Assembly: GCA_045613925.1 (NCBI GenBank)
Contig: JAZLBV010000011.1
Coordinates: 4,069-68,068 of the forward strand
DNA: 64,000 nt
Direction: 5' to 3'
From: Candidatus Enterousia sp.
Lineage (GTDB): Bacteria > Pseudomonadota > Alphaproteobacteria > Rs-D84
The position numbers and the translations under genes are program-made. The stretch's first letter is position 1, and the number at the start of each line of letters is the position of its first letter. A model generated the notes under the pieces. The model searched no databases. It had not been told where the DNA came from and saw nothing but the letters and a program-made list of their open reading frames with translations. This document shows, piece after piece, positions 29,476-46,594 of this stretch.

Positions 29476-30573
<1,098 letters not shown>

Positions 30574-30590
30574 TACATTGAAATTTCTAG

Positions 30591-30618
30591 AAAAGGCCGG
30601 TAAATACCGGCCTTTTTT
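30591..30618 (+). terminator. Terminator after mreB
   Basis: AAAAGGCCGGTA-AA-TACCGGCCTTTTTT. Confidence 0.85.
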
Positions 30619-30657
30619 ATTAGTTTTTTTAAAAAATAAGTTTTTAAGTGTTTTTAT

Positions 30658-30685
30658 TTGCAAATCCAAAATTTATTGCTATAAT
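30658..30685 (+). promoter_or_regulatory. sigma70-type promoter for tRNA-Val(GAC)-metG
   Basis: TTGCAA-16 bp-TATAAT. Confidence 0.6.
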
Positions 30686-30696
30686 GCGGTTGTTTT

Positions 30697-30773
30697 GGGT
30701 GGTTAGCTCAGTTGGTTAGAGCGTTACGTTGACATCGTAAAGGTCGTTGGTTCGAGTCCAATACCACCCACCA
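30697..30773 (+). tRNA. tRNA-Val (GAC)
   Basis: GGGTGGT..ACCACCC acceptor stem, TTACG-TTGACAT-CGTAA anticodon arm, CCA. Confidence 0.97.
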
Positions 30774-30788
30774 AAAAAGATAAAGAAC

Positions 30789-30864
30789 ATGAAACGAATG
30801 CAAATTTAATTTTGATAAAAAAATAAACGGGATTCATTGGACGCCCCGTTTGCGTCCATTTTTT
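30789..30864 (+). promoter_or_regulatory. Candidate metG attenuator: leader MKRMQI plus alternative hairpins
   Basis: ATG AAA CGA ATG CAA ATT TAA (30789-30809); AAACGGG/CCCGTTT competes with the terminator TGGACGC/GCGTCCA-TTTTTT. Confidence 0.5.
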
Positions 30865-30889
30865 ATAAAAAAACCAAGGAACAAATACA

Positions 30890-32512
30890 ATGGGACAAAA
30901 ATATCTTATAACTTCTGCATTACCATATATAAACGGTGTATTACATATTGGTCATTTGGTTGGCTGTTGGTTGCCAAGTGATGTATATGCCAGATTTTGC
31001 CGTGCCCTGGGTCGTGATGTTCTTTATATAGGTGGCGCTGATGAACATGGAACACCTGCGTTGGTTGGTGCTTTAAAAGAAAATATGCCCATACTAGAAT
31101 ATACTGATAAATATTATGAAAAACATTTGCGGGCTGTATCTGATTTTAATTTGTCTTTTGATTTATATGGACGAACACATACCCAATTACAGCAAGAATT
31201 AATTCACGATTTGTTTAAACGTTTGGAAGAACGTGGTTTGATTGAAGAACGCGAAACAATTCAACCGTTTTGTGTGGATGACGATATGTTCTTGGCAGAC
31301 AGACAATTAGAAGGCACTTGTCCGAAATGTGGTTATGACAAAGCACGTGGCGACCAATGCGATAATTGCAGTGCAACATACGAAGCCGATGAATTATTAA
31401 GCCCACGGTCTGCGATTTCTGGGTCAACCAATATCGAAATGCGAAAAACAAAAAACTTGTTTTTTATGGCCTCTAAGATAGAAAAAGACTGGCGAAAATG
31501 GTTATTGGAGCATGCACCAAAATGGTCTAAGACCGCTTCGGCTATTGCACAAGGTTGGGCTAATGAAGGTTTACGCGACACATCTATTACCCGTGATTTA
31601 AAATGGGGAATTCCTGTGAACAAACCAGGGTATGAAAACAAGGTTTTTTATGTATGGTTTGATGCACCGTGGGGTTATGTTTCTATATCCCAAGCCGCAA
31701 ATAAAGATTGGGAATCTTGGTGGAAAAATCCAGATTGTTTTTATGCACAATTTATGGGCAAAGACAATGTAAAATTCCATTCTGTATTTTTCCCAGAACA
31801 ACAATTAGCAATGGATGATAATTGGAAAACTGTGGATTTATTAAAATCTTTGAATTTCTTGAATTTCGAAGGCGGAAAAATTTCTAAATCAACAGGAAAC
31901 GGAATCTTTTTAGATAATGCGCTTGATATCGCACCAAGTGATTGTTGGCGATATGCACTGATGGCGTCAGCACCCGAAACAGACGACACAGATTTCACTA
32001 TGGCGCGTTTTGTCGATATTGTGAACAAAGATTTAAATGGTTTGCTTGGTAATTTTGTATCACGTGTTTGCAAATTAAGTGCTAAAAATTTCGGTGATGT
32101 TGTACCAAATGGTGGCGATATAGATCCTGAATTAGCAAATAAAATTAATGAAAAAATTGATGAATTAACAAATGCTTTGGAAAAATGCGAATTCAGAAAA
32201 TCTATTGTTGCACTGCGTGAAATTTACGGTATTGCAAATGAATATATGACCATCAAAGAGCCGTGGGCATTGGTTAAAAATGGTGATTTAGATGGTGCCG
32301 CATCTGCGTTAAACGAATGTTTTCAACTGATTGATTTATTCGCACGTGTGTCTGCACCGTTTATCCCAGATGCTGCCAACAAAATTCAAAATATATTTGA
32401 AATAAAACACGATTTTTCATGGCCAACAAAATACGAACACAGAATACAAAATGGCGAAAAATTCGTGGTTCCAGAAAATTTGTTTAATAGGCTTGAAATA
32501 AAAGAAGATTAA
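30890..32512 (+). CDS. metG: Methionine--tRNA ligase (short form, no C-terminal tRNA-binding domain)
   Basis: TSALPYINGVLHIGH, DEHGT, Zn knuckle CPKC..CDNC, YVWFDAP, KISKS. Confidence 0.95.
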   Translation: MGQKYLITSALPYINGVLHIGHLVGCWLPSDVYARFCRALGRDVLYIGGADEHGTPALVGALKENMPILEYTDKYYEKHLRAVSDFNLSFDLYGRTHTQLQQELIHDLFKRLEERGLIEERETIQPFCVDDDMFLADRQLEGTCPKCGYDKARGDQCDNCSATYEADELLSPRSAISGSTNIEMRKTKNLFFMASKIEKDWRKWLLEHAPKWSKTASAIAQGWANEGLRDTSITRDLKWGIPVNKPGYENKVFYVWFDAPWGYVSISQAANKDWESWWKNPDCFYAQFMGKDNVKFHSVFFPEQQLAMDDNWKTVDLLKSLNFLNFEGGKISKSTGNGIFLDNALDIAPSDCWRYALMASAPETDDTDFTMARFVDIVNKDLNGLLGNFVSRVCKLSAKNFGDVVPNGGDIDPELANKINEKIDELTNALEKCEFRKSIVALREIYGIANEYMTIKEPWALVKNGDLDGAASALNECFQLIDLFARVSAPFIPDAANKIQNIFEIKHDFSWPTKYEHRIQNGEKFVVPENLFNRLEIKED

Positions 32513-32514
32513 AT

Positions 32515-32952
32515 ATGAAAAAGAAACGAAACCCAAGAATTGATATAGATTATACAGATTTTTCCTGTACACAAATTAATTTAAATGATGGTTGTGTAGA
32601 TGAATTCACAATAAAAAATTGGCGCGATTTTACTAATTATGCTAAATTATTAACAGCCCCTGTTGAAATCAAAGCGCACTATCAAAAGCATTTTATTGAT
32701 TTATGGCAGGGACGCGGAGATGAAGATTCGCCACACCCAATTATACATACAATTAACAAAAATCTGGAATTTGTGATTGTTGCTGACAAACAAGAATTCA
32801 ATGCTGTTTTTGCAAAAACAAATACTAAATACGACGGTTTGGTTGTAAACAAGAAAATACATATAATTTTACCAAAACAAACAGATACTATTGATTATAC
32901 AATTTATGCCTATTTTAATAGAATAGAGATACCAACTAGAAATGGTCGATAA
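32515..32952 (+). CDS. Hypothetical protein
   Basis: 145-aa ORF tightly packed between metG and queH; no recognised motif. Confidence 0.6.
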   Translation: MKKKRNPRIDIDYTDFSCTQINLNDGCVDEFTIKNWRDFTNYAKLLTAPVEIKAHYQKHFIDLWQGRGDEDSPHPIIHTINKNLEFVIVADKQEFNAVFAKTNTKYDGLVVNKKIHIILPKQTDTIDYTIYAYFNRIEIPTRNGR

Positions 32953-33481
32953 AATAAAATTGGTTTTAATGTCTTGTTGTGCACCATGTTCGTGCGGCGC
33001 AATTAAACAACTTGCAGACGGGGAAATTCCCGGCATAGACGATTTTATTGTCATGTTTTTTAATCCAAATATTTTTCCAGATAGCGAATATCAAAAGCGT
33101 TTACAAGAACAAATAAAATACTGTGAAAAATTGGGTGTGAAATATGTTGTTGGCGATTACAATCACGATGCTTGGCGTGATTATGTGCGCGGATTAGAAA
33201 ACGAACCCGAACGTGGTGCACGATGCAGTAAATGTTTCGCATATCGTTTTTGTTTCGCACGCGATTGGGCAATAAAAAATGGTTTTAATGCAATTGCATC
33301 TGTGTTTGGTGTATCTCGACACAAAGATCAATCTCAGGTCGATTGTGCTGCAGAAACATCCTGTGGTGATATAAAATATTTGCCAATAAAATGGGATGAA
33401 AAATTACGCAACAAAATCAACCGTGAATCTGAATTTTACAGACAAAATTATTGCGGTTGTGAATTTTCAGTGCGTAAATAG
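32942..33481 (+). CDS. queH: Epoxyqueuosine reductase QueH (DUF208)
   Basis: CCAPCS, NPNI.P..EY.KR, EPERG.RC..C...R, YRQNYCGC.FS. Confidence 0.92.
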   Translation: MVDKIKLVLMSCCAPCSCGAIKQLADGEIPGIDDFIVMFFNPNIFPDSEYQKRLQEQIKYCEKLGVKYVVGDYNHDAWRDYVRGLENEPERGARCSKCFAYRFCFARDWAIKNGFNAIASVFGVSRHKDQSQVDCAAETSCGDIKYLPIKWDEKLRNKINRESEFYRQNYCGCEFSVRK

Positions 33482-33556
33482 TAGTTTATGCATAATAATT
33501 TGATTTTTGCTTTTAATTTTCTATAATTTATGGGGTAAAATAAAAAAAGGACAAAT

Positions 33557-34432
33557 ATGTCATCTATACTTGTTTTTCCAGGCCAGGGTTCACAAACTGT
33601 CGGTATGGGGCGCGAATTGTATGAAAACAATGCAGATGCACGCGCTGTGTTTGACGAAGTGGACGATGCTTTGAATGAAAAATTATCAGATATTATTTTT
33701 AATGGGACAATGGATGATTTAACACTTACCCGCAATGTACAGCCTGCAATTATGGCAACATCTATTGCAATGTTTCGTGCAGCTAAGGTACCGCTTAGCG
33801 AATATGTTGCTGGACATTCATTGGGTGAATATACTGCACTGTGTGCGGCGGGCGCGTTGTCGTTGAAAGATACTGCAAAATTATTGCGCTTGCGTGGAGA
33901 TGCTATGCAACGCGCTGTACCGGTTGGACAGGGGTTAACCGCAGTCATTTTAGGATTGGACATAGATGTTGTTCGTGATATTTGTGCACAAACAGATTGT
34001 GATGTTGCAAATGACAACTCTCCGGGTCAGGTTGTAATTTCTGGTGCACGCGACGTTGTTGAAAAAACAATGGAAATGGCGCGTGATGCAGGGGCAAAAC
34101 GTGCTTTGCCGTTGGCATTATCTGTGCCTGTACATTGCAGAATTCAAGAACCTGCGGCAGAAGAAATGCGCGAAGCGTTGGAAAAAACAATTATAAATAA
34201 CCCAAATGCAAAATTGATTTCAAATAAAACATGCAGTCCTATATCAGATGCAAACGAAATTCGCGAAACATTGGTATATCAAATGACACATGGTGTTCGC
34301 TGGCGCGAAAGTGTGTTAGAGATGCAAAAAATTGGTATAGATGAAACGATAGAGGTTGGACCTGGGGCGGTTTTAACAGGTTTGATAAAACGTATTTGTC
34401 CCGACATGAACGCAATTAAGTTAGAGGTATAA
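33557..34432 (+). CDS. fabD: Malonyl-CoA:ACP transacylase
   Basis: FPGQGSQ, QPAI, GHSLGEY, NDNSPGQVVISG, VRW.E. Confidence 0.95.
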   Translation: MSSILVFPGQGSQTVGMGRELYENNADARAVFDEVDDALNEKLSDIIFNGTMDDLTLTRNVQPAIMATSIAMFRAAKVPLSEYVAGHSLGEYTALCAAGALSLKDTAKLLRLRGDAMQRAVPVGQGLTAVILGLDIDVVRDICAQTDCDVANDNSPGQVVISGARDVVEKTMEMARDAGAKRALPLALSVPVHCRIQEPAAEEMREALEKTIINNPNAKLISNKTCSPISDANEIRETLVYQMTHGVRWRESVLEMQKIGIDETIEVGPGAVLTGLIKRICPDMNAIKLEV

Positions 34433-34435
34433 ATA

Positions 34436-34723
34436 ATGAAAAAGAATAGACGTTCAAAAAACAAACGCGACTGGTATTACAATGGTAAAATTGCTGGTGG
34501 TTATTCATTAAACCGAAATCCGCGTGGCGTATTGTTTGAACCAGTGGAGAATATGGAAATAATTGATGCAGCCAAGGCAGCATATCATCTTGCGTTGCAT
34601 CATAAAATAGATGTTGTAATGAATTTTAATGGGGTCAAATTAAACGTCACTTGTCAAAATGGGGCAAAGCCAGAAAACATCGCCAAAAAATATTATAAAT
34701 TCTGTAATAACAAAACAAGATAA
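34436..34723 (+). CDS. Small basic hypothetical protein
   Basis: 95-aa ORF with GAGG RBS, between fabD and fabG. Confidence 0.55.
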   Translation: MKKNRRSKNKRDWYYNGKIAGGYSLNRNPRGVLFEPVENMEIIDAAKAAYHLALHHKIDVVMNFNGVKLNVTCQNGAKPENIAKKYYKFCNNKTR

Positions 34724-34742
34724 GAAAACAAAGGAAACAAAA

Positions 34743-35471
34743 ATGTTCAATTTAAAAGATAAAGTTGTTTTAATAACTGGCGCAACTGGTGGAATTGGCG
34801 GTGAAATTGCTAAACAGATGAAAAATGCGGGGGCAACAGTTGTTGTTTCTGGGCGCGGAATTGATAAGTTAAATTCTGAATTTGATGACGGTTTTATAAA
34901 AATAGCATCTGATTTATCAACAGATGGTGCAACCGAAAAATTAATTGCGGATACAATTGAACGCACAGGTCGCATAGATGTTTTAATCAACAATGCCGGA
35001 ATTACCGCAGATACATTGATGATGCGAATGTCAGATGAACAATTTGACAATGTTATAAATGTTAATTTGCGCGCAACGTTTAAATTATGTCGGGCAGTAT
35101 TGATGCCTATGATGAAACAACGTTTTGGACGTATAATAAATATGGCATCGATTATCGGTACTATTGGTGGCCCGGGTCAGGCAAATTATGCCGCATCAAA
35201 GGGCGGAATGATTGCAATGACTAAATCCATAGCGGCCGAAGTTGCTTCGCGTGGAATCACTGCAAATTGCATTGCCCCAGGTTTTATAAAAACACCTATG
35301 ACTGATGTATTGCCAGATGAATTAAAGAAAACTTATTTATCACAAATACCGGCTGGACGTTTTGGGGAACCGATTGATATTGCAAACACTTGCGTGTTTT
35401 TGGCATCCGACGAAGCGTCATATATCAATGGTCAAACAATCCACGTAAACGGCGGAATAGGGAGGTTTTAA
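34743..35471 (+). CDS. fabG: 3-oxoacyl-ACP reductase
   Basis: TGATGGIG, NNAGIT.D, YAASK, AAGGA RBS before MFNL. Confidence 0.93.
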   Translation: MFNLKDKVVLITGATGGIGGEIAKQMKNAGATVVVSGRGIDKLNSEFDDGFIKIASDLSTDGATEKLIADTIERTGRIDVLINNAGITADTLMMRMSDEQFDNVINVNLRATFKLCRAVLMPMMKQRFGRIINMASIIGTIGGPGQANYAASKGGMIAMTKSIAAEVASRGITANCIAPGFIKTPMTDVLPDELKKTYLSQIPAGRFGEPIDIANTCVFLASDEASYINGQTIHVNGGIGRF

Positions 35472-35473
35472 TT

Positions 35474-36028
35474 ATGAAACCACAAGAATTTAAAATACTA
35501 AAGACTAAAAATTTAAAATTAAAACCACTGGTTGCAACATTCAAATTTGCAAATGAATTATTTGATATTATTGATACTAACCGGGATTTTTTCAAATATA
35601 TGCCCTGGGCAGATGTAGAAAAACCAGAACAGGAATTTGTTTATTTACGCGATTCAGAAAAGGGCTGGAAAAATAATACCAAGGCCAATTATGGTTTATT
35701 TCTGCACGATAGTGAAGATTTTGTTGGCGTTTGTGGGATGTTCAACATAAATTGGGAAAACGAAAGTGGTGAAATCGGGTATTGGATGAATCCAAAATAC
35801 GCAGGCAAAGGTTTTATGAGCGAAGCTGTTAATGCTATTTCTTCTGAATTCCTGAACATAGGGTTTAAACGTATTGTAATATTGGCAAATCCGGAAAACA
35901 TTGCTTCGTGTAAAGTCGCCGAAAAATGCGGTTTTGAACGCGAAGGTATTATGCGCAGTTATGATTTTTTGCCTGTTTTGAATAAACGCGAAGATATTGT
36001 GTTATACGCGAAAATAAACGAAAAATAG
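35474..36028 (+). CDS. GNAT acetyltransferase, RimJ/RimL family
   Basis: EIGYW.NPKYAGKGFMSEA, N.ASCKVAEKCGF..EG. Confidence 0.88.
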   Translation: MKPQEFKILKTKNLKLKPLVATFKFANELFDIIDTNRDFFKYMPWADVEKPEQEFVYLRDSEKGWKNNTKANYGLFLHDSEDFVGVCGMFNINWENESGEIGYWMNPKYAGKGFMSEAVNAISSEFLNIGFKRIVILANPENIASCKVAEKCGFEREGIMRSYDFLPVLNKREDIVLYAKINEK

Positions 36029-37681
36029 ATGCAAGAATTTGATGTTATTGTTATTGGTGGTGGACACGCGGGTGTTGAAGCAGCAACCGCATCTGCGCGA
36101 CGTGGGGCAAAAACACTGTTATTAACAATGCGTGAAAGTGATATAGGTGCAATGTCGTGTAATCCATCTATTGGTGGGCCCGGAAAATCGCAAATGGTTG
36201 CCGAAATGGCCGCATTTGGGGGTGTTATGCCGTGTGCGGCGGATTCTGCAGGAATTCATTGGCGAACATTGAATGCAACGCACGGGGCGGCAACCCAGGC
36301 TTTGCGTGCACAGATTGATAGAAATTTTTATCATAATGCGGTAATGAAAATTTTAGAAAACACCGGTAATTTGACGGTAATTTTTGAAAAAGTCATCGAT
36401 TTAGATATTGAAAAAAAATCTGTTAATAAAAAATATACTGCAAAATCGTTGGTGTTAACAACCGGGACTTTTCTGTGGGGGCTTGTCACGCGCGGAAATG
36501 AAAAAATTGAATCTGGGCGTTTAATGGACGATGGAAAATATCAAGAAAATGATACGGTGATATCAAAAATTCTTAAAAAGGCCGGCTTTGAACTGTTGCG
36601 GTTAAAGACGGGAACACCTGCACGAATTTATCGCGATAGTATTGATTTTAGGGTTTGTGAAGAACAACCCGGTGATTTTCCACACGATTGGTTTGGTGTG
36701 GGGGACGATAAAAACACATATAATGACAAATGTTTCATCACGCATACGAATGAAAAAACACATGAAATTATTCGGGAAAATATAAAAAACGCACCTATGT
36801 ATAACGGCGATATCAGGGGGCTGGGTCCGCGTTATTGTCCGTCTTTGGAAGATAAAGTAATGCGTTTTCCAGAACACACTTCACACCACGTGTTCTTAGA
36901 ACCCGAAGGTTTCAACAGCGATTTAATTTATCCAAACGGTATATCAACCAGTTTTGGTTCGGATATTCAAGATATTTGGATACGGACTATTCCTGGGTTA
37001 GAAAACGCCCGCATAGCGCGATATGGATACGCGATTGAATATGATGCAATTGATGCACGAAAATTAAAAACTACACTGGAATCAAAAGATATACCAGGGC
37101 TTTTTTTTGCGGGACAAATCAATGGAACATCTGGATACGAAGAAGCTGCAGCCCAAGGTCTGGTTGCTGGGGCAAATGCCGCTGCGTATGCATTAAATGT
37201 TGCACCATTGGTTTTAGATAGAACAAATTCTATGATTGGTGTTTTGATTGATGATATAACAACATTGGGGGTTGACGAACCATATCGTATGTTCACCTCT
37301 CGGGCAGAATACAGATTAAACCTGCGCGCAGATAATGCAATATTCAGATTGGGCTATACGGCACAATCTCTGGGATTGATAGATTCAGAAACATTTGAAA
37401 AAATAAAAAACATACGTGAAAAAGTTACCATAGAAAATGACAAATTTTATGCAGGTTATATATCACGTAATGAACGCGAAATTGAAAACTATAAAAAAGA
37501 TGCCGAATTAAAAATCCCACACGATTTTGATTATAAATCTATGCCGGGTTTAACAAACGAATTGGTTGAAAAATTAACAAAAACACGTCCTGAAAATATC
37601 GCCGCTTTATCACGAATTCCGGGTATGACACCGGCTGGAATTATTGTTGTTTTACGCAAAATAAAATGTGGAAATAAATAA
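36029..37681 (+). CDS. mnmG: tRNA uridine-5-carboxymethylaminomethyl modification enzyme MnmG (GidA)
   Basis: [67 protein letters not shown]. Confidence 0.95.
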
Positions 37682-37708
37682 AAATATGTATTAAGATTCC
37701 TGCAAGTT

Positions 37709-37784
37709 GCCGGTTTAGCTCAGCTGGTAGAGCATCTCATTCGTAATGAGGGGGTCGTAGGTTCAAGTCCTATAACCGGCACCA
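37709..37784 (+). tRNA. tRNA-Thr (CGT)
   Basis: GCCGGTT..AACCGGC acceptor stem, TCTCA-TTCGTAA-TGAGG anticodon arm, CCA. Confidence 0.95.
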
Positions 37785-37793
37785 GAAAATTTC

Positions 37794-38468
37794 TTATATT
37801 TTTTTATCTGATGAATTACACCATTTTGAAACCGGACAGTTTGCACAATTTGGATGCAGAGCTTTACACGTATAACGACCATGCAGAACCATTGTATGAT
37901 TTGTTATTGCATGATATTTTTTGGGGATTATTTTAAGCAGTTTTTCTTCGACCCGTTCCGGGGTGTTATCGTTTTCATCACACCAATTAAAACGATGTGA
38001 AAGCCGGAAAACATGTGTATCAACACCTATGTTCGGCGCATTCCAAAGCACGTTCATTATAACGTTTGCCGTTTTTTGTCCCACACCTGGCAATTTCATT
38101 AATTCATGTCGCGTGTGATATTTTGTCGGAAATTTATAATTTATATCATCGCTGTTTTCATCTTTTAATTGTTGGGACAGGGCGATAATCGATTTTGCTT
38201 TATTATTAAAAAAAGATATTACTTTGATGTGTTTTTTTAATCCGTCCAATCCCAATGTCAACATTTTATCGGGCGTTGGCGCAATACGAAAAAGTTCGGG
38301 GGTAACTTCATTCACTTTTTTATCAGTGGCCTGGGCTGACAAAATCACCGCCACAGCAAATGTAAATTCATTTGTCGAATATAACTCTGACCGGATGTTC
38401 ATATTCAATGTTGGACAAACATTTTCAAAATAAACATCCGGTGTAAGAGTTATTTTTTGTTTACGCAT
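37794..38468 (-). CDS. nth: Endonuclease III
   Basis: LSAQATDKKVN, HhH LPGVGQKTANV, VDTHV.R, C-x6-C-x2-C-x5-C Fe-S motif. Confidence 0.95.
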   Translation of the reverse strand: MRKQKITLTPDVYFENVCPTLNMNIRSELYSTNEFTFAVAVILSAQATDKKVNEVTPELFRIAPTPDKMLTLGLDGLKKHIKVISFFNNKAKSIIALSQQLKDENSDDINYKFPTKYHTRHELMKLPGVGQKTANVIMNVLWNAPNIGVDTHVFRLSHRFNWCDENDNTPERVEEKLLKIIPKKYHAITNHTMVLHGRYTCKALHPNCANCPVSKWCNSSDKKI

Positions 38469-41400
38469 TTACTTTTTCAATATTTATAGATATATCGTAT
38501 TCTTCAATTTTATCAGAATATTGATTGGCATTGCCAAAGTTCATTTCAACGATTAACGCTTCGTGCATAAGGTATTTTTTATGCAACTCTATTGCATCGC
38601 GCAAGGCAGAATCCGCCGTATAGGTCAATTTTATTCTGTCTGAAACATCCAGATTCGCCGCTTTGCGTGAATCTTGGATAAAGCGTTTTACTTCATTGGC
38701 CAAACCTTCGGCAAAAAGTTCTGAATTAATCTCTATATTCAAAACTACAACCGCGGTGTTATCAGGTAATGTTGCGCCAGTTATACCTTCTTTGATAGTC
38801 AAACGATTTTCAAATTCGTCGCCATTCAAAGTATATTCGCCAACAATTAATTTATCATTTTCAATTTTATAATCACCACGTTTTACCATTGGGACTATAT
38901 CTTTCAAAGCACCACCCAGACGCGCGCCAATTTTTGGTGTGATTAAATATACAAAAGAATCAGCAACTTCATTTATATTTTCAACAAATTTGATTTCTTT
39001 GACATTTAATTCATCGCGGATAATATCGCTATATTCGCGCATATCAACATCCGCAATTGTTGCGTCTTGCAAAGGCAAACGATTACGCAATTTATATTGT
39101 TCGCGCAACTGTTTCCCAGTAGATACTATCATTTGAACACGACGCATATCGTTCACTGTTTTTGTGTCAATATCGCCAGCCGTTGGCCAATCTTCAAGAT
39201 GTACAGATTCTTTGCCTGTTAAATTTTTGAATATGTATTCAGAAATAAACGGTGCAAATGGTGCCAAAACCTTACAAAATGTCGTCAAAACATAGTGCAA
39301 TGTTTCAAATGCACTTTCATCTTCATCCCAAAAGCGGTCGCGATTACGACGAATGTACCAATTATTTAAGACGTCTAAGAATCGTACAAATTCTTTGACT
39401 GCTATATCTGGTTTGTATTCATTCAGCGCATTTGTTGTTGTGTTTATCAAATCGTTCAATTCAGACACTATGTATTTATCAAGCAAATTATCCAATTGCG
39501 GCGCACGCGATACAGTAATATTCGCAGCATTCGCATATAAAGTAAAGAAATGATATGCATTCCAAAGCGGTGTTAATATTGTTTTGATTGTATCATTAAA
39601 AACACGACCTTCTTTGTCTATGCCAACAGATTCAGCCTTCATAAAATTGCTGCCCTGGATAAACAAACGAATTGCATCTGCACCGTATGTTTCTATTTGT
39701 TCACTTGGGTCAACATAGTTATGCAAAGATTTAGAAAACTTTCTTTTTTGTTCATCGCAAATCATACCATTTGCAGACACAACCTTGAACGCAGGTTTAT
39801 CAAACAAAGCAACTGCGATAACCATCAAAGAATAAAACCATCCGCGTGTTTGATCTTGACCTTCGATAATATAATCAGCAGGGAAGGTTGCTTCGAATTT
39901 ATCTTTGTTTTCAAACGGGTAATGCAAGGATGCAAACGGCATAGAACCACTTTCCACCCAACAATCCAAAACATCAGTTATACGATGCCAACCATCTTTT
40001 GTTAAATTATCTAATGTTGGACGATGTAAATCTTTGATTTCAACACCAAAGAAATCTTGCATTTCTTTGATAGACCCAAATACTTTGTATTCACCATCTT
40101 TTTCCCAAATTGGTAATGGAACACCCCAGAATCTATTTCTTGATATTCCCCACGGACGTGCGTTTTCTATCCAGGCCAAAAATCTGTTTCCCGCAGACGT
40201 CCAATTTGTTTGTGTTTTTGTTATCTCTACCAGACGTTCCCGCACTTTTGGAACATCAATATACCAGGCATCAGTTGCACGGTATATCAATTTTTCTTTG
40301 CTGCGTGGACCAAAAGGATAACTGTGTTTGTGTTGATCTTTTTTAACCAATAAACCGTTCGCACGCAAATAATCTATGATTTTTGGATTTGCCACAAATA
40401 TATTTTCACCAGCCCAATCTTTCACAGTGTTATCAAAATTACCATAATCATCAACATTCAATATGATTGGGAATTTTGGATCTATGGCCTTAGCAACAAA
40501 ATAATCATCTTCACCATATGCCGGTGCAATATGAACAATACCCGTACCATCAGAATCACTGACATAATCACCAGGGATTATTTGATATAATAAATCACTT
40601 GTTCCTTCATAGTAATTGAATAATGGTTTATAATGCATACCGACCAATTCAGAACCCTTGACTGTTCCCAAATTTTCTGATGTTGCAAATATTTTTTCAT
40701 AAGCCTTTAATCTGGATTCAGCCAAAACATAAACATGGCCGTCATCGTGTTTCATACGAACATAAGTCATATTCGGATTTACCGCCAACGCAGAATTCGC
40801 AGGTAATGTCCAAGGTGTAGTTGTCCAGGCAATAGCTCTGTCGCCATTTTGTAATTCAAACCAAACCGTCACAGTATCATCAACAATATCTTGGTATTCG
40901 GATGATGCTTCGGAATTAGAAAGCACTGTCCCCAATTTCCAATCAAATGGATTTACTTTGAAATCTTTATAAAGTAATCCCTGGTCATATAATTGTTTTA
41001 AACCCCAGATTACAGATTCCATATAATTAGTATCCATGGTACGATATCCAAAATCGTCACCGCCATCAACCCAACGACCTATGCGTTCTATATAACGCAA
41101 CCATTCATTAGTATATGTCAAAACATCGCTTTTACACATATCACAAAAAGTAGATATACCATCATTTGCAACAATATCTTTGGCACTACGATTTTGTTTC
41201 TTTTCAACACTATTTTCAGCCGGTAATCCGTGGCAATCCCAACCAAGTTCGCGTTCAACATAATTACCACACATCGTTTGAAAACGAGAAACCATATCTT
41301 TAATCGCAGAAACACCCAAATGCCCCCAATGTGGCAAACCGTTTCCGAACGGTGGACCGTCATAAAAACTGAACGGATGCCCCTGTTTAGTCTTGTTCAA

Positions 41401-41496
41401 AGATTTATGAAATGTGTCATCTTTGCGCCAAAATTCCATTACTTCATTTTCAAGTTTTGGAAAATCAGCCTTGGTTTCTGTTTTGCGATATGTCAT
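38461..41496 (-). CDS. ileS: Isoleucine--tRNA ligase, type 2-like
   Basis: YDGPPFGNGLPHWGH, WTTTPWTLPAN, WGISRNRFWG, EGQDQTRGWF, KFSKS; long C-terminus without the type-1 Zn-finger Cys motif. Confidence 0.95.
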   Translation of the reverse strand: MTYRKTETKADFPKLENEVMEFWRKDDTFHKSLNKTKQGHPFSFYDGPPFGNGLPHWGHLGVSAIKDMVSRFQTMCGNYVERELGWDCHGLPAENSVEKKQNRSAKDIVANDGISTFCDMCKSDVLTYTNEWLRYIERIGRWVDGGDDFGYRTMDTNYMESVIWGLKQLYDQGLLYKDFKVNPFDWKLGTVLSNSEASSEYQDIVDDTVTVWFELQNGDRAIAWTTTPWTLPANSALAVNPNMTYVRMKHDDGHVYVLAESRLKAYEKIFATSENLGTVKGSELVGMHYKPLFNYYEGTSDLLYQIIPGDYVSDSDGTGIVHIAPAYGEDDYFVAKAIDPKFPIILNVDDYGNFDNTVKDWAGENIFVANPKIIDYLRANGLLVKKDQHKHSYPFGPRSKEKLIYRATDAWYIDVPKVRERLVEITKTQTNWTSAGNRFLAWIENARPWGISRNRFWGVPLPIWEKDGEYKVFGSIKEMQDFFGVEIKDLHRPTLDNLTKDGWHRITDVLDCWVESGSMPFASLHYPFENKDKFEATFPADYIIEGQDQTRGWFYSLMVIAVALFDKPAFKVVSANGMICDEQKRKFSKSLHNYVDPSEQIETYGADAIRLFIQGSNFMKAESVGIDKEGRVFNDTIKTILTPLWNAYHFFTLYANAANITVSRAPQLDNLLDKYIVSELNDLINTTTNALNEYKPDIAVKEFVRFLDVLNNWYIRRNRDRFWDEDESAFETLHYVLTTFCKVLAPFAPFISEYIFKNLTGKESVHLEDWPTAGDIDTKTVNDMRRVQMIVSTGKQLREQYKLRNRLPLQDATIADVDMREYSDIIRDELNVKEIKFVENINEVADSFVYLITPKIGARLGGALKDIVPMVKRGDYKIENDKLIVGEYTLNGDEFENRLTIKEGITGATLPDNTAVVVLNIEINSELFAEGLANEVKRFIQDSRKAANLDVSDRIKLTYTADSALRDAIELHKKYLMHEALIVEMNFGNANQYSDKIEEYDISINIEKVNA

Positions 41497-41522
41497 TGTT
41501 TTCTACCTTTTTTGTTGCATTT

Positions 41523-41569
41523 AAAAAGGGCGCTTACGCGCCCCAGCCACCGCTAAAGCGCAGCGCCTT
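41523..41569 (-). promoter_or_regulatory. ileS attenuator terminator/antiterminator
   Basis: Terminator GGGCGC-GUAA-GCGCCC-UUUUU (41543-41523); alternative UGCGCUUU(41562-41555):GGGGCGCG(41544-41537) pairing. Confidence 0.8.
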
Positions 41570-41602
41570 TTATTTAATAATAATTATTGCTTTTTGTTTC
41601 AT
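41570..41602 (-). CDS. ileS leader peptide MKQKAIIIIK
   Basis: ATG AAA CAA AAA GCA ATA ATT ATT ATT AAA TAA; four tandem Ile codons upstream of ileS. Confidence 0.85.
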   Translation of the reverse strand: MKQKAIIIIK

Positions 41603-41609
41603 AATGATA

Positions 41610-41638
41610 TTTATACAATGATTTTATTAAAAAATCAA
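41610..41638 (-). promoter_or_regulatory. ileS promoter
   Basis: TTGATT-17 bp-TATAAA, 7 nt before the leader ATG. Confidence 0.65.
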
Positions 41639-41654
41639 GTTGTGATTATAATTT

Positions 41655-44003
41655 TTATGCGCGCAATTTCGCACCACATTTTGTTTCAACATTTGCAATA
41701 ATCGTATTTTGGATTTTCAATAAATCTTCATCCGTCATATTTTGTTCTGGATAAATAGTTATTGTAAATGCCACTGATTTTTTACCGTCGCCCATATCAA
41801 ACGAATCAAATATAACCGCATTTGATATACGCGAATCACAAGATAATGCCGTTGATATTATCTTTTGTGATTCATAATCTTTGTCAACTACAAACGCAAA
41901 ATCACGTGTAATCGGCATAAAATCCGTCATTGGGATTTTTTTATACTTTAATTTCTTTGGCAATAATTCAATGTCTTCAACAATTGCAACCATCACAGGT
42001 GTTTTTATATGCAATTTTTTCGCTATTGACGGATGTAATTCACCAAATTGTGCCAAAACACGTGGCCCCTGGGTAATCGCTCCGTATTTATACGGGTGCG
42101 CCCAAAGAGGCGGATTTTTTGTATCTATGTTGAATTTTTGTGAACCAAGCAAAGATAAAACATCCGCTTTAACATCAAAAACATCAACATTACGATTGCG
42201 TTTCTGCCAATGTTTTGGCGATGTAGCACCGGTTCTGACTATGCAAATAGAGTTATGTTGTTCACCCGGTTTATCACCATCAAACACTGTTCCTAATTCA
42301 AACATATTCATATCTGGAAATCCGCGTTTTTCATTTTTTGCAACCGCAATCAATAAATTTTCCAACAAATTATTTCGTGCAGTATCTAAATCAACAATGA
42401 TTGGATTGGCAATTTTGATTATTGATTTTGTCGTTAACATCTCTTCGATTTTTGAATTGCCAAAACCAAAAGTGATTGCTTCGTTTAATCCACGATTTGC
42501 TAATTTTTCTTTTAATGATAAATTCATATCATTATGCACAATATTCGTTTTGTTTTCTGGTAATGAATCAAAACCTATTTTTTCATAACCATAGATACGA
42601 ATTAAATCAGAAACTATGTTTTCAGGAATCACTACATCCACACGCTGTGGATTTGGTATTATAACCCAATTACCATTTTTGTCGTCTGTGATTTTATATT
42701 GTAATTTTTCAAGTATTTCACGTTGTGTTTTTTCATCTAAATCAATACCTGTTTTTTGTTTGAAATAAGATGGTTTATACACGACGGATTCTGGTGTATA
42801 GGATGCACGACCTGCAACTGATACATTTACAATTTTACCGCCACACGCATCCATTATTATTTTGGCAGCATAGGCCAAGGCGCGTGCGGTTCCATCTGGA
42901 TTAATACCACGTTCATATCTGTACGAAGAATCAGTTGATATACCGTGTCTTTTTGATGATTTACGTACGAACACAGGGTCAAAATACGCTGATTCCAAGA
43001 TAATATTTTTTGTGTTATCGTTTGTCATACCACGCGCACCACCAATTACACCGGCCAAAGCCAAAACACCAGCATCATCTGCGATAACCAAATCTTTGTC
43101 GCAAAGTTCGTGTTCATTTCCGAACAGGTCTGTGAATTTTTCTTTATCTTTGGCCATACGAACAGTTATGTCGCCCTTGATTTCATCAGCATCAAAACAA
43201 TGCATAGGTTGTGCCAAATCATAGCAAATGTAATTAGTAGCATCCACCGGTGCATTTTTTGGATTAATGTCTGCAGAACGTAATCTGTTTTGAATTTTTT
43301 TATCTGACGGTGCGTTTTTAATTCCGTGTATTTCGCAGAAACGATATGTTTTGCACGCATCAGGCGCCAATAAATTCACTTTGCGATAATTTTCTTTTGA
43401 ATCAGATCTTTTTTCTTCTCTATCTGCTATAGTTTCATCAATATTGTTTGCAATATATTTTCCGGCACCCGCAGCGGCCAAATCCAAAGCAATTCCACGC
43501 ACAGATAAATAATCTGGACGATTTGGGGTAATAGATGTTTCCAATACCGCAGACGCAGAATCCTGCATAGCAGATATAGGTTGACCGATAGCTTCTTCTT
43601 TTTCGTTTAATTCGATAATACCGTCATCATCGGTTCCTATGCCCATTTCAGCAGCGCTGCACATCATACCATTTGATTCAACACCACGTAATTTTCCAGG
43701 TTGAATTACAAAATCGCCGATTTTACAGCCCGGCAATGCCAGCGCAGAAACCAATCCAACACGTGCATTTGGCGCACCACATACAACCTGGCGTAATTTA
43801 CCAGAACCATCATCCACTTTTAACACATGTAAATGATCACTGTCTGGATGCTGGGCACATTCGACAATTTTTGCGGCAATTGGCAATATAGGCAATGATA
43901 AATCTTCAACCTCTAACCCAATCGCGTTTAATTTATCAGCAATTTGTTCTGGGGTTAAATCTGTATCAAGATATTCTTTTAACCATTCATAAGACCATTT
44001 CAT
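41655..44003 (-). CDS. pheT: Phenylalanine--tRNA ligase beta subunit
   Basis: MKWSYEWL, HPDSDHL, VVCGAPN, RGVES.GM.CS, ITPNRPD, RYERG, C-terminal FDX-ACB (RDFAFVV). Confidence 0.95.
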   Translation of the reverse strand: MKWSYEWLKEYLDTDLTPEQIADKLNAIGLEVEDLSLPILPIAAKIVECAQHPDSDHLHVLKVDDGSGKLRQVVCGAPNARVGLVSALALPGCKIGDFVIQPGKLRGVESNGMMCSAAEMGIGTDDDGIIELNEKEEAIGQPISAMQDSASAVLETSITPNRPDYLSVRGIALDLAAAGAGKYIANNIDETIADREEKRSDSKENYRKVNLLAPDACKTYRFCEIHGIKNAPSDKKIQNRLRSADINPKNAPVDATNYICYDLAQPMHCFDADEIKGDITVRMAKDKEKFTDLFGNEHELCDKDLVIADDAGVLALAGVIGGARGMTNDNTKNIILESAYFDPVFVRKSSKRHGISTDSSYRYERGINPDGTARALAYAAKIIMDACGGKIVNVSVAGRASYTPESVVYKPSYFKQKTGIDLDEKTQREILEKLQYKITDDKNGNWVIIPNPQRVDVVIPENIVSDLIRIYGYEKIGFDSLPENKTNIVHNDMNLSLKEKLANRGLNEAITFGFGNSKIEEMLTTKSIIKIANPIIVDLDTARNNLLENLLIAVAKNEKRGFPDMNMFELGTVFDGDKPGEQHNSICIVRTGATSPKHWQKRNRNVDVFDVKADVLSLLGSQKFNIDTKNPPLWAHPYKYGAITQGPRVLAQFGELHPSIAKKLHIKTPVMVAIVEDIELLPKKLKYKKIPMTDFMPITRDFAFVVDKDYESQKIISTALSCDSRISNAVIFDSFDMGDGKKSVAFTITIYPEQNMTDEDLLKIQNTIIANVETKCGAKLRA

Positions 44004-44020
44004 TGTTTTTACCCCTTTAA

Positions 44021-44965
44021 TTAAAAACCACTATTTTTTAACCAACGAATATCGCCGTCATATATTGGGCGTATATCATTCAAACCATATTTTAACATTG
44101 CCATTCTGTCCCAACCAAAACCAAATGCAAAACCCTGATATTCATCTGGATTTATATTACAGTTTTTTAGAACATTTGGGTGAACCATTCCGGCACCACA
44201 TATTTCAAGCCATTTTCCGTTATCCCATTTCATATCAAATTCAACCGATGGTTCTGTGAATGGAAAGTACGACGGACGTATACGTAATTCTATGTCGCGT
44301 TCAAAAAACTTTGACAGCAGCGCACGCAATGTCCCGATTAAATCAGACATTGTTATGTTTTTATCAACATATAATGCCTCCATCTGACCAAACATAGGTG
44401 CGTGCGTCGCATCCCATTCTTTGCGGTATGTAGCCCCAATTGCAAATATCTTAATCGGAGCACCCATTTTTTCCATAGCACGAATTTGTATTGCAGATGT
44501 CTGTGTCCGCATAACATTGCCATTTTCAAGAAAGAAAGTATCTTGCATATCGCGTGCAGGGTGATAATCCGGTGTATTCAAAGCAGTAAAATTATGCCAA
44601 TCATCTTCGATTTCGGGGCCAGTCCAAAGTGTAAAACCAAAAGACTCCATTACGGCAGATAATTCCTTTAACGCTTGTGTCATTGGGTGCAAGGTTCCGC
44701 GATTTTCGGGTTCTGTATCCAATGTCACATCAACATATTCCGTTGCCAATTTTGCGTTTAACGCCGCGTTTTCAAGTTCAGTTTGTTTATCTTTGAATAA
44801 TTGACGTAATTCAGAATTTTCAGCATTTACAACCGCACGTTCTTCATTGGAAAGCGCAGCCATATTTTTCAATTTGGCCGTCATCGTGCCATTCTTACCA
44901 AATGTTTCGGTATATAAAACCTGTAATTCTTCAAGCGATGACACGTTTTTTATTTTATCTTTCAT
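44021..44965 (-). CDS. pheS: Phenylalanine--tRNA ligase alpha subunit
   Basis: HPARDMQDTF, RTQTS..QIR, RPSYFPFTEPS, GAGMVHP, GFAFGFG.DR. Confidence 0.96.
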   Translation of the reverse strand: MKDKIKNVSSLEELQVLYTETFGKNGTMTAKLKNMAALSNEERAVVNAENSELRQLFKDKQTELENAALNAKLATEYVDVTLDTEPENRGTLHPMTQALKELSAVMESFGFTLWTGPEIEDDWHNFTALNTPDYHPARDMQDTFFLENGNVMRTQTSAIQIRAMEKMGAPIKIFAIGATYRKEWDATHAPMFGQMEALYVDKNITMSDLIGTLRALLSKFFERDIELRIRPSYFPFTEPSVEFDMKWDNGKWLEICGAGMVHPNVLKNCNINPDEYQGFAFGFGWDRMAMLKYGLNDIRPIYDGDIRWLKNSGF

Positions 44966-44994
44966 TTTTACCCCGTTTTTCACGTTTATACACT

Positions 44995-45058
44995 AAAAAA
45001 TAAGACCGTAATACTTTACGGTCTTATATTCTGACAAAACAAAACATTGCCGTAAAGC
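44995..45058 (-). promoter_or_regulatory. Terminator between rplT and pheS with overlapping mini-ORF MFCFVRI (PheM-like candidate)
   Basis: 12-bp stem ATAAGACCGTAA/TTACGGTCTTAT plus U-tract; ORF 45047-45024 has 2 Phe codons; alternative 9-bp pairing GCTTTACGG/CCGTAAAGT. Confidence 0.55.
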
Positions 45059-45059
45059 A

Positions 45060-45428
45060 TTATTTAGCGGTTTCGGCAATAAATCGTTTTGCTGTTTCAA
45101 TCAAACTATTAAAGTTTTTATCAGCATCGTACGCCATTTGGGCCAAAACTTTGCGGTCCAAAGTAATACCTGCTTTTTTCAAACCGTTCATAAATTGACT
45201 ATATGTCAAACCATTTGGACGAACCGCAGCATTGATACGAACAATCCAAAGAGAGCGAAAATCACGTTTCTTTTGACGACGATCGCGATATGCATACTGT
45301 CCAGCCTTTTCGGTTTTTTCACGTGCAGCACGATACGTTGAATGATGACGACCAAGATAACCCTTAGCCCGTTCAAGTATCTTGTTATGTTTTTGTTTAA
45401 CGGTTGTTCCACGTTTTACCCTTGCCAT
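45060..45428 (-). CDS. rplT: 50S ribosomal protein L20
   Basis: [37 protein letters not shown]. Confidence 0.97.
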
Positions 45429-45441
45429 AATATGCCCCCTT

Positions 45442-45645
45442 TTATTTCAATCCGTATGGAGCCAAGATTTTCGCCTGACCCATCATATTTTCGTTTAAAT
45501 ACTGTGGCTTTGTCCCAGCGTTATTTGCACGCTTTGATTTATGCGACAGACATTTATGGTGAGCATTTCTAGCAACGCGAACCTTTCCGGTTGCAGTCAT
45601 AGAAGCACGTTTTTTTAAATAAGATTTTGTTTTTAATTTTGGCAT
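45442..45645 (-). CDS. rpmI: 50S ribosomal protein L35
   Basis: MPKLKTK...KR..T.TGKV; upstream of rplT. Confidence 0.9.
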
Positions 45646-45736
45646 TTTTAATCCTTTTTTTTATAATCCTCGTGGCAATGCCTGCCATTTCGGTTGCTGT
45701 TATTCTGACACATAAAAAAGAAAAATCAAGTTTTTA

Positions 45737-45765
45737 TTGAATATTAAAATTTTTGCGGTTAAAGT
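45737..45765 (+). promoter_or_regulatory. mreC operon promoter
   Basis: TTGAAT-17 bp-TAAAGT, 7 nt before ATG 45773. Confidence 0.6.
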
Positions 45766-45772
45766 ACTTTTC

Positions 45773-46594
45773 ATGACCAAGGACAAATTATCTTATAAAT
45801 TAACAAAAATTATAAAATCTGTATTAGCGGCACTGGCGGTGCCTGTTTTTGTTATTTATATCATTGTCGCAAAGCCTGATTATACCATTATGAACGGGTT
45901 GGCGTATGTTGTATTACCCGTGGCAAATTGGGTTGGTGATATTATAACCTGGCCGGTGCGCGTTGTTGGTCAGGGTGTAGATTGGGTACGCGAAACAGCA
46001 AAAATACGGTCTGAAAACGAAGAATTAAGGAAGAAATTGGATACAGCATTGGCAAATAAATATGCCTGTGATATCGCGATGGCGGAAAATCAAAAGCTTG
46101 AAAATGAAATAGGCGTAAAAAATGCATCGCCATACAAAACAGTTGTTGCAGATGTGCAATTTAATGATTCTGTATTTCATCATAATACATTTTTAATAAA
46201 TCGTGGAAAAAAAGATGGTTTGGCTCGCGGGATGGTGGTTGTTTCTTTTGATAATCGATTAATTGGAATGATTGTTGATTGTGGCTCTGAATTTTGCCGT
46301 GTACGTGGTCTGTGTGATGCAGATTCTAATATTGCTGTGCGTGTTGCAGGCAGTGATATTTCCGGGTTTTTACAGGGAAATGGAAAAACGCGTGCTTCTA
46401 TTGGCTTTTTCAGCGATCCACAATTTGTGGCAAGGCCCGGATTAAAGATTATAACAAGTAATATAAGTGGGATTTTGCCATCTGGTGTGTATATAGGCGA
46501 TATGATTAATGAAACCTATGTTGATGTTTTACCGGCAAATAAGTATTCACGGGTTTTGGTTTTGAAATATAACGGTTCGGGTTCGTATAATTGA
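45773..46594 (+). CDS. mreC: Rod shape-determining protein MreC
   Basis: N-terminal TM, coiled coil (ENEELR..L), INRGKKDG...GM.V, L.G; upstream of mreD/mrdA. Confidence 0.85.
   Translation: MTKDKLSYKLTKIIKSVLAALAVPVFVIYIIVAKPDYTIMNGLAYVVLPVANWVGDIITWPVRVVGQGVDWVRETAKIRSENEELRKKLDTALANKYACDIAMAENQKLENEIGVKNASPYKTVVADVQFNDSVFHHNTFLINRGKKDGLARGMVVVSFDNRLIGMIVDCGSEFCRVRGLCDADSNIAVRVAGSDISGFLQGNGKTRASIGFFSDPQFVARPGLKIITSNISGILPSGVYIGDMINETYVDVLPANKYSRVLVLKYNGSGSYN

Follow-up and report, generated by a model that had tools for sequence, protein, structure and literature searches.

How might a bacterium that makes no amino acids match the synthesis of each aminoacyl-tRNA synthetase to the charging of the corresponding tRNA? 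The question is raised by a 64,000-nucleotide (nt) stretch of DNA (hereafter, the window) from a Candidatus Enterousia genome (Alphaproteobacteria, order Rs-D84; 0.87 Mb in 19 contigs, ~95% complete), in which the synthetase genes metG, ileS and pheST each lie behind a mini-open reading frame (mini-ORF) and an intrinsic terminator. Enterousia belongs to an uncultured order with genomes below 1 Mb, from which amino-acid biosynthesis pathways are absent (PMC12306168), and because the organism lacks these pathways its synthetase genes are the only obvious targets for sensors of this kind. An initial annotation of the window had described cognate-codon mini-ORFs, terminators and alternative pairings at all three loci, and the sequence and a terminator scan place every one of these parts where it had put them. 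Our reading, inferred from sequence as are all of the mechanisms proposed below, is that the three genes probably follow cis-acting terminator/antiterminator switches, with those at ileS and metG operated through translation of a tiny leader.

We compared the ileS loci of 24 congeneric species and of 16 genomes from other families of the order, 33 Enterousia loci for metG, 21 aligned species for pheS, 29 usable loci for thrS and 30 loci for hisS. In a protein search with MetRS, the relatives are metagenome-assembled genomes labeled ‘Candidatus Enterousia’ or ‘Alphaproteobacteria bacterium’, from the rumen and from the horse and chicken gut. For the genome-wide comparison, 18 synthetase loci were located through signature motifs and confirmed with NCBIfam.

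The ileS element is the most certain of the three and is very likely an attenuator that senses Ile-tRNA. The gene lies on the reverse strand (38461–41496, Pfam) and encodes a long form of the enzyme with a DUF5915 tail. Its leader promoter (TTGATT-17-TATAAA, 41610–41638) is followed, 7 nt past the −10 box, by the ATG of an ORF encoding MKQKAIIIIK (41570–41602), in which four tandem Ile codons read ATA ATT ATT ATT. Downstream, an antiterminator helix (41537–41562) joins UGCGCUUUAGC (41562–41552) to GCUGGGGCGCG (41547–41537) and takes in the terminator's 5′ arm. The intrinsic terminator itself, GGGGCGC-GTAA-GCGCCC with a T5 run (41523–41544, hairpin 41544–41527), ends 27 nt before the ileS ATG (41496), and the window sequence has no promoter-like box between the two.

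A leader of the form MxxxxIIIIK, closed by a stop codon, is present in 24/24 congeneric genomes. It has 9–11 codons with three to five (usually four) tandem Ile codons, starts with ATG in 23 of the 24 and with GTG in one, and keeps its frame and length. The block ATA ATT ATT ATT AAA TAA hardly changes between species and the RNA beyond it is conserved, while codons 2–5 vary. The leader is retained whether its upstream neighbor is pheT, tRNA-Thr or another gene. Since a TTGnnn-17-TAnnnT promoter has its −10 box 7–10 nt ahead of the leader ATG (15/23 species), with no Shine–Dalgarno sequence, the leader mRNA is probably leaderless. In four relatives (L008, L010, L012 and L024), the ileS leader lies 15–25 nt after tRNA-Thr(CGU), with no promoter or terminator in between.

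The terminator hairpin and its T-run are found in all 24 species, with folding energies of −7 to −19 kcal/mol. For this region RNAalifold gives the antiterminator as the consensus in place of the terminator: UGCGCUUUGGC pairs with GCUGGGGCGCA, again including the terminator 5′ arm, with 95.7% of alignment cells paired and little variation. In species L011 the same position is changed in all three strands (UACGC, GCGUA and ACGCC), which is what a terminator 5′ arm shared by the two helices predicts. The antiterminator strand begins 9–12 nt past the first base of the stop codon in every species, and masking 13–16 nt from the leader stop turns the minimum-energy fold into the terminator in 20 of the 24.

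In the mechanism that we propose for ileS, transcription would start at the leader promoter and proceed through the 10-codon ORF, the antiterminator strand (UGCGC…) and the terminator. When Ile-tRNA is plentiful, the ribosome would quickly reach the stop codon, where a footprint extending ~13 nt past the A site would cover the start of the antiterminator; with that start masked, the terminator would fold and transcription would end. When Ile-tRNA is scarce, the ribosome would stall at the Ile codons and leave the antiterminator strand free to capture the terminator 5′ arm, allowing polymerase to continue into ileS. We infer the masking step itself, in which the antiterminator is hidden by a ribosome at the stop codon and left free by one stalled at Ile codons, and several observations count against the scheme. 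The element varies so little that its covariation falls short of significance (score reached by 29/500 shuffles). Unmasked, the RNA of about half of the species folds into an upstream hairpin A plus the terminator, or into a long hairpin abutting the U-tract, and that of the remaining species into the antiterminator, which an additional GGCGC–GCGCC pairing lengthens; these equilibrium folds are ambiguous, and so the decision must be kinetic. In addition, synonymous sites in the Ile codons are near-invariant, as a constraint at the RNA level could also produce, and the footprint of a ribosome at the first Ile codons reaches no RNA helix.

At metG (forward strand, 30890–32512, Pfam), the leader follows a tRNA gene. 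The tRNA-Val(GAC) gene (30697–30773; ARAGORN and Rfam) has a promoter (TTGCAA-16-TATAAT, 30658–30685) that is the only one visible in a promoter scan to feed the metG leader. The mini-ORF, ATG AAA CGA ATG CAA ATT TAA (MKRMQI, 30789–30809), is followed by an antiterminator strand, AAACGGG (30825–30831), which contains an ACGGG box and is complementary to CCCGTTT at 30845–30851. The latter lies within the intrinsic terminator TGGACGC-CCCGTTT-GCGTCCA followed by T6 (30838–30864, hairpin 30838–30858), the end of which is 25 nt from the metG ATG (30890).

ORF, box and terminator occur together in 20 of the 33 Enterousia loci, and tRNA-Val lies upstream of the metG leader in most related loci. The encoded peptides fit M(K/M)RM(Q/Y/H)(I/N/K), closed by a stop, around an invariant CGA-ATG (Arg-Met) core, with variants ATG-CGA-ATG-TAY-AAW-TAA, ATG-AAA-CGA-ATG-CAA-ATT-TAA and ATG-ATG-CGA-ATG-…; every indel is a multiple of three, the stop never leaves the frame and substitutions fall mostly at third codon positions. 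An invariant (A/G)CGGGA box is found 19–22 nt past the leader stop. The 5′ arm or loop of the terminator holds CCCGU, and both CGGG and CCCG are invariant in 20/20 leaders. RNAalifold applied to a MAFFT alignment of the metG leaders returned zero pairs, the ACGGG box being off by one column between clades; per-sequence folds were used in its place, and in these the terminator forms in all 20. In the species with a leader, the stretch beyond the terminator is too short to hold a promoter, and metG therefore depends on read-through of the tRNA-Val transcript. The 13 species with no metG leader have in its place a plain tRNA-Val terminator and then a TTGATT…TATAAT promoter of metG's own, a replacement that speaks for the element. 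The tRNA-adjacent leader mRNAs of both ileS and metG appear to be cotranscribed with the tRNA and freed by tRNA processing.

The metG element could thus be described as a 5–6 codon ORF with an M-R-M core, carried on the tRNA-Val transcript, whose ACGGG box would compete for the CCCGU of the terminator. The signal might be that initiation with fMet-tRNA falls, or that the ribosome stalls at the AUG inside the ORF, in the CGA-AUG pair; as MetRS charges both the initiator and the elongator tRNA, either could report a shortage. A Met sensor is the best reading of this leader, and one that we favor by a small measure. Weighing against it are the 13 of 33 species that manage without a metG leader and the single internal Met codon of the leader (20/20). 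The ACGGG/CCCGU pairing never varies and so provides no covariation, a ribosome at the leader stop would have a footprint too short to cover the box, and a candidate region-1 pairing of AAUCUU, after the stop, with GGGAUU of the box is present in one clade only. For this last reason a classical four-region model built on that pairing was rejected. A T-box-like reading, prompted by UGGA in the antiterminator loop, was also set aside, as the motif is missing in other clades and has no Rfam match.

The element between rplT (45060–45428) and pheS (44021–44965), with pheT (41655–44003) beyond, is of a different kind (all three on the reverse strand; Pfam). The mini-ORF that the initial annotation had taken for a Phe leader encodes MFCFVRI with two Phe codons (45024–45047). 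In the 21 aligned species it has no conserved start, frame or stop, and 18 of the 21 lack the ATG, most of them having AAGG, AGGG or GGGG at that position; an ATG occurs only in the window genome, L069 and L070, and in L069 in a different frame. A Phe-codon leader for pheST is rejected on these grounds, and the proposal of cognate leaders at all three loci thus holds for ileS (24/24) and for part of the metG loci (20/33) and fails for the pheS ORF (ATG in 3/21).

What is conserved between rplT and pheS is the RNA. The 5′ strand of the antiterminator, GCTTTACGGC (45049–45058), starts 2 nt past the rplT stop (45062–45060), overlaps a −35-like TTTACG and can pair with ACCGTAAAG (45022–45014). A conserved extended −10 promoter-like box, TTTTGTnATAAT (45036–45028), lies inside the bases of the mini-ORF. 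The terminator, ATAAGACCGTAA-AGTA-TTACGGTCTTAT followed by T6 (44995–45027, hairpin 45027–45000), is ~30 nt before the pheS ATG (44965). It is strongly supported by the alignment, with 99.3% of cells paired, three compensatory pairs and a covariation score reached by 0/500 shuffles. In all species the upstream strand starts 1–4 nt past the rplT stop; it reads CUUUACGGC or CUUGGCGG, and its duplex with the terminator 5′ arm and loop is worth −10 to −15 kcal/mol in most. For the antiterminator, 83.4% of cells are paired, with one compensatory pair and 9/500 shuffles reaching the score. Covariation links a single terminator column to two strands, the 3′ arm that it pairs with (CG:15 / AU:6) and the strand upstream (GC:15 / UA:5).

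We lean towards an RNA switch gated by rplT translation. As the antiterminator strand abuts the rplT stop, a ribosome finishing rplT there would probably mask it and thereby favor termination, and the antiterminator, when free, would let part of rpmI-rplT transcription run on into pheST. The embedded extended −10 promoter would probably supply basal transcription from inside the terminator 5′ arm. The signal read at pheST would then be one of coupling or translation rate and would not be specific for Phe. Two observations tell against such a switch: only ~6 of the 9 proposed antiterminator pairs are well kept, and the 5′ strand is also a plausible −35 box.

Are these hairpins distinctive in the region? 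Terminator-like sites in the whole region number 17 against 14.9 in shuffles, which is no excess, and the argument consequently rests on position and conservation, not on count. No other terminator-like site that the region has on the relevant strand is as strong as the three hairpins behind the mini-ORFs. Intrinsic terminators (GC stem plus T5–T6) stand between leader or element and gene at all three loci and in all relatives that bear the elements. The ileS, metG and pheS hairpins are 25–34 nt from the start codons, with the Shine–Dalgarno sequences outside them. Rfam at gathering score finds only tRNA in the window and no T-box or other cis-regulator, which bears out the annotation on this point, and a permissive scan (E ≤ 5, 30500–45800) likewise places no T-box, L20 leader or amino-acid leader on the three elements; sub-threshold Thr_leader matches in that scan fall only on the mreB terminator.

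For the synthetase genes at large, the annotation had suggested a systematic arrangement of minimal attenuators of 6–10 codons. Among the mini-ORFs upstream of the 18 loci, the cognate residue is top-ranked for Ile, Thr, His and Phe, with ~1 such case expected by chance. Further cognate leaders are present at thrS and hisS. The thrS leader (own genome C14, locus L096; relatives L097–L125; other families L174–L176 and L183–L184) is conserved in 29/29 usable loci and in at least two other families of the order. It has four to eight Thr codons in runs of three to seven and uses all four synonymous codons (MFYRLFVFTTTTTTTPLGV and MNLFKSFFTTTTTTPLGV are examples, each closed by a stop). Translation reads into an ACCCC-loop-GGGGU hairpin, with the last Thr codon already contributing to the start of its 5′ arm, and the stop lies just after the hairpin. 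Beyond the leader is a conserved TTGCGN-17-TATAAT box, the spacer of which holds a covarying hairpin (GCGG/CCGC, GCGA/UCGC, GCAC/GUGC). A second helix downstream of the leader seems less likely to be the true terminator, its U-tract not being adjacent and the promoter fitting better.

The hisS leader (own genome C18, locus L126; relatives L127–L155) has one to four His codons in 30/30 loci, an HH pair or more in 27 of the 30, and ends in …(L/F)HHA…. Its hairpin begins at the second His codon (CACGCCC-loop-GGGUGUG) and has compensatory variants CGCCC/GGGCG, CACGCCAC/GUGGCGUG and CACGCU/AGCGUG. Past the leader comes TGATATAAT, an extended −10 box that does not vary, and with it a further covarying hairpin and a UUUUCCAUA motif that complements the Shine–Dalgarno sequence. 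The thrS and hisS leaders have 10–25 codons, where the annotation had suggested 6–10, and their hairpins have poor U-tracts. At ileS, thrS and hisS, the leader ATG tends to follow a TTGnnn-16/17-TAnnnT promoter by 6–10 nt (ileS 15/23, thrS 27/29 and 22/22 processed hisS loci). In one member of another Rs-D84 family (L026), ileS has a different leader, MFQINQEIIFRIPVWGN closed by a stop, in which an AUC Ile codon directly adjoins a CCCC-GUUU-GGGG hairpin; leaders of thrS and hisS are built on this module too. Sensing of Ile at ileS may therefore have arisen, or been remodeled, more than once in the order.

The arrangement is not general. No leader plus terminator is found at valS, leuS, alaS, argS, cysS, gltX, tyrS, glyS, proS, serS or lysS (11/18 loci), and the upstream survey that the annotation had called for thus extends the leaders to thrS (29/29) and hisS and stops short of a systematic control of the synthetases. 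Upstream of trpS there is no Trp-containing ORF and only an AT-rich palindrome. This palindrome is perfect (TTTCTAATGCAT-tttttg-ATGCATTAttAGAAA, ~C4:29700–29768), lies just before the trpS Shine–Dalgarno sequence and could be an operator or an RNA hairpin. Both it and a leuS mini-ORF (TTG TTG CTT GAT TAA) were examined as leaders and dismissed, having no terminator and no cognate enrichment. Two unbiased searches were of limited use: a genome-wide listing of mini-ORFs with amino-acid runs is far too noisy in this AT-rich genome, and a strict scan for promoter, ATG, ORF and GC hairpin is too narrow, recovering thrS and missing hisS and ileS, the latter with its −10 box TATAAA.

A sensor of another class is present at aspS, outside the window, and the initial assumption of a T-box-free lineage is wrong. 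Of 41 congeneric genomes searched with the Rfam T-box model, 27 give sub-threshold matches (24–39 bits, cut-off 93), and the 18 matches that were fetched all lie ~70 nt upstream of aspS (own genome C11:90861–91128, locus L156, ~110–380; relatives L157–L173). The core, AGGGUGGCACCGCG, is invariant and the antiterminator is canonical with a UGGC bulge, which would fit a G73 discriminator. Stem I is minimal, with a 3-bp stem that covaries (GCG:CGC, GUG:CAC, AUG:CAU) and a 9-nt loop containing GAC and/or AAC. A GGUGCC / GGCACC / Shine–Dalgarno relay downstream suggests translational control. Of 150 other alphaproteobacterial genera, only one has a T-box-like match, in a 1.1-Mb genome and also before aspS (L190).

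Could the window elements be explained without charging sensors? One alternative holds that the hairpins are the ordinary terminators of tRNA-Val, of the pheT/ileS promoter region and of rplT, and that the mini-ORFs are chance products of AT-rich DNA with no regulatory role. Intergenic DNA here does indeed abound in short ORFs containing I, K, L, F or N runs, terminator-like sites are no commoner than in shuffles, the metG and pheS terminators do follow a tRNA gene and rplT, respectively, and the pheS mini-ORF is not conserved. Chance would not, however, maintain the ileS ORF in 24/24 species whatever gene lies upstream, nor does it account for thrS and hisS leaders that likewise match their own amino acid; the strict promoter, ATG, short-ORF and GC-hairpin scan finds only six sites in the genome, among which thrS is the sole clear leader. 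Moreover, ileS and metG have no promoter past the terminator, and an efficient unconditional terminator would silence these essential genes. We consider this explanation quite improbable. Hardly more probable is a model in which the leaders act as RNA unread by ribosomes, the fold being chosen by a protein (for example, the synthetase itself, in the way that E. coli ThrRS binds its own mRNA) or by uncharged tRNA, with the codons serving as binding determinants. It would account for why AUAAUUAUUAUUAAAUAA and AUGCGAAUG are invariant down to the nucleotide, synonymous positions and the rare CGA codon not excepted, and for a metG geometry that misfits a simple footprint model, and the same genome does have a tRNA-sensing T-box at aspS. 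Yet no T-box core or other Rfam family is found on the leaders. The ileS start codon, promoter spacing (7–10 nt), length and frame are kept while codons 2–5 are free, the metG indels come only in multiples of three, and the thrS leaders draw on four synonymous Thr codons in in-frame runs of three to seven.

The two remaining alternatives concern the output of the elements. At pheST, the block might be a promoter only (−35 TTGGCG, 17 nt, TGT-CATAAT) with its start inside the rplT terminator, in which case the complementarity would be functionless and pheST constitutive. The DNA fits such a promoter: a −35 TTGGCG and a near-invariant TGT-nATAAT are separated by 17 nt, the extended −10 is near-invariant in 21/21 species, the predicted start falls inside the terminator 5′ arm, and of the antiterminator pairs the three outermost are badly preserved. 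Against this, the clade of the window has T at position 3 of the −35 box (TTTACG), which makes a poorer promoter and yet exactly matches a terminator-arm A that covaries with its 3′ partner; the duplex, at −10 to −15 kcal/mol, rivals the terminator energies, and the rplT stop is always 1–4 nt upstream of the strand. A promoter-only block seems to us rather unlikely, although it is the strongest of the competing accounts. A further proposal, that the leader ORFs act mainly on downstream translation or mRNA stability (through standby, re-initiation or Shine–Dalgarno unmasking) and not on termination, draws on the thrS and hisS loci, where a conserved promoter-like box after the leader (TTGCGN-17-TATAAT and TGATATAAT, respectively) would bypass a terminator and the hairpins have poor U-tracts, and on metG, where AAUCUU after the leader stop is complementary to an AAGGA-type Shine–Dalgarno sequence. 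The ileS, metG and pheS hairpins are nonetheless canonical GC stems running directly into T5–T6, set 25–34 nt from the start codons with the Shine–Dalgarno sequences not included, and we give this proposal little credence. The terminator/antiterminator switches are the preferred reading at all three window loci.

How do these switches compare with known systems? Ribosome-mediated attenuation is classical, and Escherichia coli pheST is the textbook case for a synthetase. There, too, a terminator/antiterminator pair lies between rplT and pheS, and the idea in common is that the RNA folds one way or the other according to a ribosome on a short ORF. The E. coli pheM leader has 14 codons, five of them for Phe. 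Enterousia has no conserved Phe-rich ORF at pheS, the nearest translated element being rplT, and in contrast to E. coli its clear leader peptides are found at ileS, metG, thrS and hisS. Like the classical attenuators (trpL, thrL, hisL, leuL and ilvL), the Enterousia elements combine tandem cognate codons with mutually exclusive helices and no protein regulator. They differ in their targets, which are synthetase genes in an organism without amino-acid biosynthesis; in their ORFs, which are shorter (6–10 codons in the window) and apparently leaderless or tRNA-linked; and in having neither a clear 1:2 pause hairpin nor a match to any Rfam leader model. The E. coli pyrBI attenuator, which senses UTP through polymerase pausing, resembles the thrS, hisS and other-family Rs-D84 ileS leaders in that the leader ORF runs through a GC hairpin, and in these three the ribosome itself could block the hairpin. 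Unlike pyrBI, the thrS and hisS leaders have cognate codon runs abutting the hairpin 5′ arm, an arrangement not shared by ileS or metG of the window. The purpose of T-box riboswitches is also the same, namely to sense the charging of one tRNA and control the cognate synthetase gene through an antiterminator. The three window elements, however, lack Stem I, the specifier loop and the AGGGUGGNACCGCG core in both the gathering-score and the E ≤ 5 Rfam scans, and sensing would occur through translation.

The annotation had pointed to E. coli pheST as the best documented case of leader control of a synthetase gene, and such control is not confined to it. In Caulobacter crescentus, ribosome profiling identified translated leader coding sequences (CDSs) upstream of ileS (CCNA_03934) and trpS (Schrader et al. 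2014, PMC4117421). This is an alphaproteobacterium with small translated ORFs directly before synthetase genes, including ileS, and with many leaderless mRNAs. The mechanism of these CDSs was not analyzed in that work (PMC4117421), and the likeness to the Enterousia ileS leader is one of position; the two organisms differ at trpS, where Enterousia has no Trp leader. A His leader has been predicted for Bacillus hisS paralogs (Naville and Gautheret, PMC2965389). Mycobacteria, too, are reported to control downstream genes through leaderless short ORFs enriched in a single amino acid, polycysteine ORFs that are presented as Cys-responsive attenuators (bioRxiv 10.1101/834739); phylum, amino acid and target genes are other than in Enterousia.

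We found no paper on regulation in Enterousia. The likeliest source of earlier predictions of synthetase attenuators is Lopatovskaya et al. 2010, which is said to treat attenuation of amino-acid and aminoacyl-tRNA operons. The Enterousia elements would be new families of a known type of control, and similar elements may have been predicted before. They are unusual in three respects: ORFs that are very short and apparently leaderless or tRNA-linked, targets restricted to synthetases in an auxotroph, and a possible Met sensor.

With the thrS and hisS leaders and the aspS T-box included, Enterousia would have a partial, not a complete, set of protein-free charging sensors. A more ambitious and decidedly tentative reading is that Rs-D84 auxotrophs keep a compact, protein-free network of tRNA-charging sensors acting only on synthetase genes, consisting of leaderless leaders at ileS, thrS and hisS, a tRNA-linked five-codon Met sensor at metG, a pheST switch gated by the rplT ribosome and a T-box at aspS. 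If this were true, metG would have an unusual methionine-sensing leader peptide that reads the supply of initiator and elongator Met-tRNA, and the aspS T-box would be a minimal and probably translational member of a class otherwise almost absent from Alphaproteobacteria. Confirmation would mean that a bacterium making no amino acids still gauges the charging of individual tRNAs and adjusts the matching synthetase, using devices of 60–90 nt and no regulator gene. The ileS, thrS, hisS and metG leaders represent several new and very small families that would suit Rfam-style models and could serve as compact amino-acid sensors. They also offer a test case for how a leaderless ORF of 6–10 codons couples to RNA polymerase. 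For annotation, synthetase genes of reduced genomes merit a check for tiny upstream ORFs ignored by gene callers, and the aspS T-box corrects the assumption that Alphaproteobacteria are free of T-boxes.

Three further observations concern the surroundings of these elements and the synthetases themselves. Upstream of tRNA-Val, a sub-threshold Rfam match to cow-rumen-4 RNA (30587–30647, forward strand; 33.4 bits, cut-off 48.5, E = 0.027) overlaps the strong mreB terminator (30588–30619) and is probably just the terminator hairpin. The signature-motif and NCBIfam search found no AsnRS or GlnRS gene in the window's own genome, where LysRS is of the class I type. The ThrRS of this genome (577 amino acids) is without the N-terminal extension seen in the ThrRS of several other Rs-D84 families.

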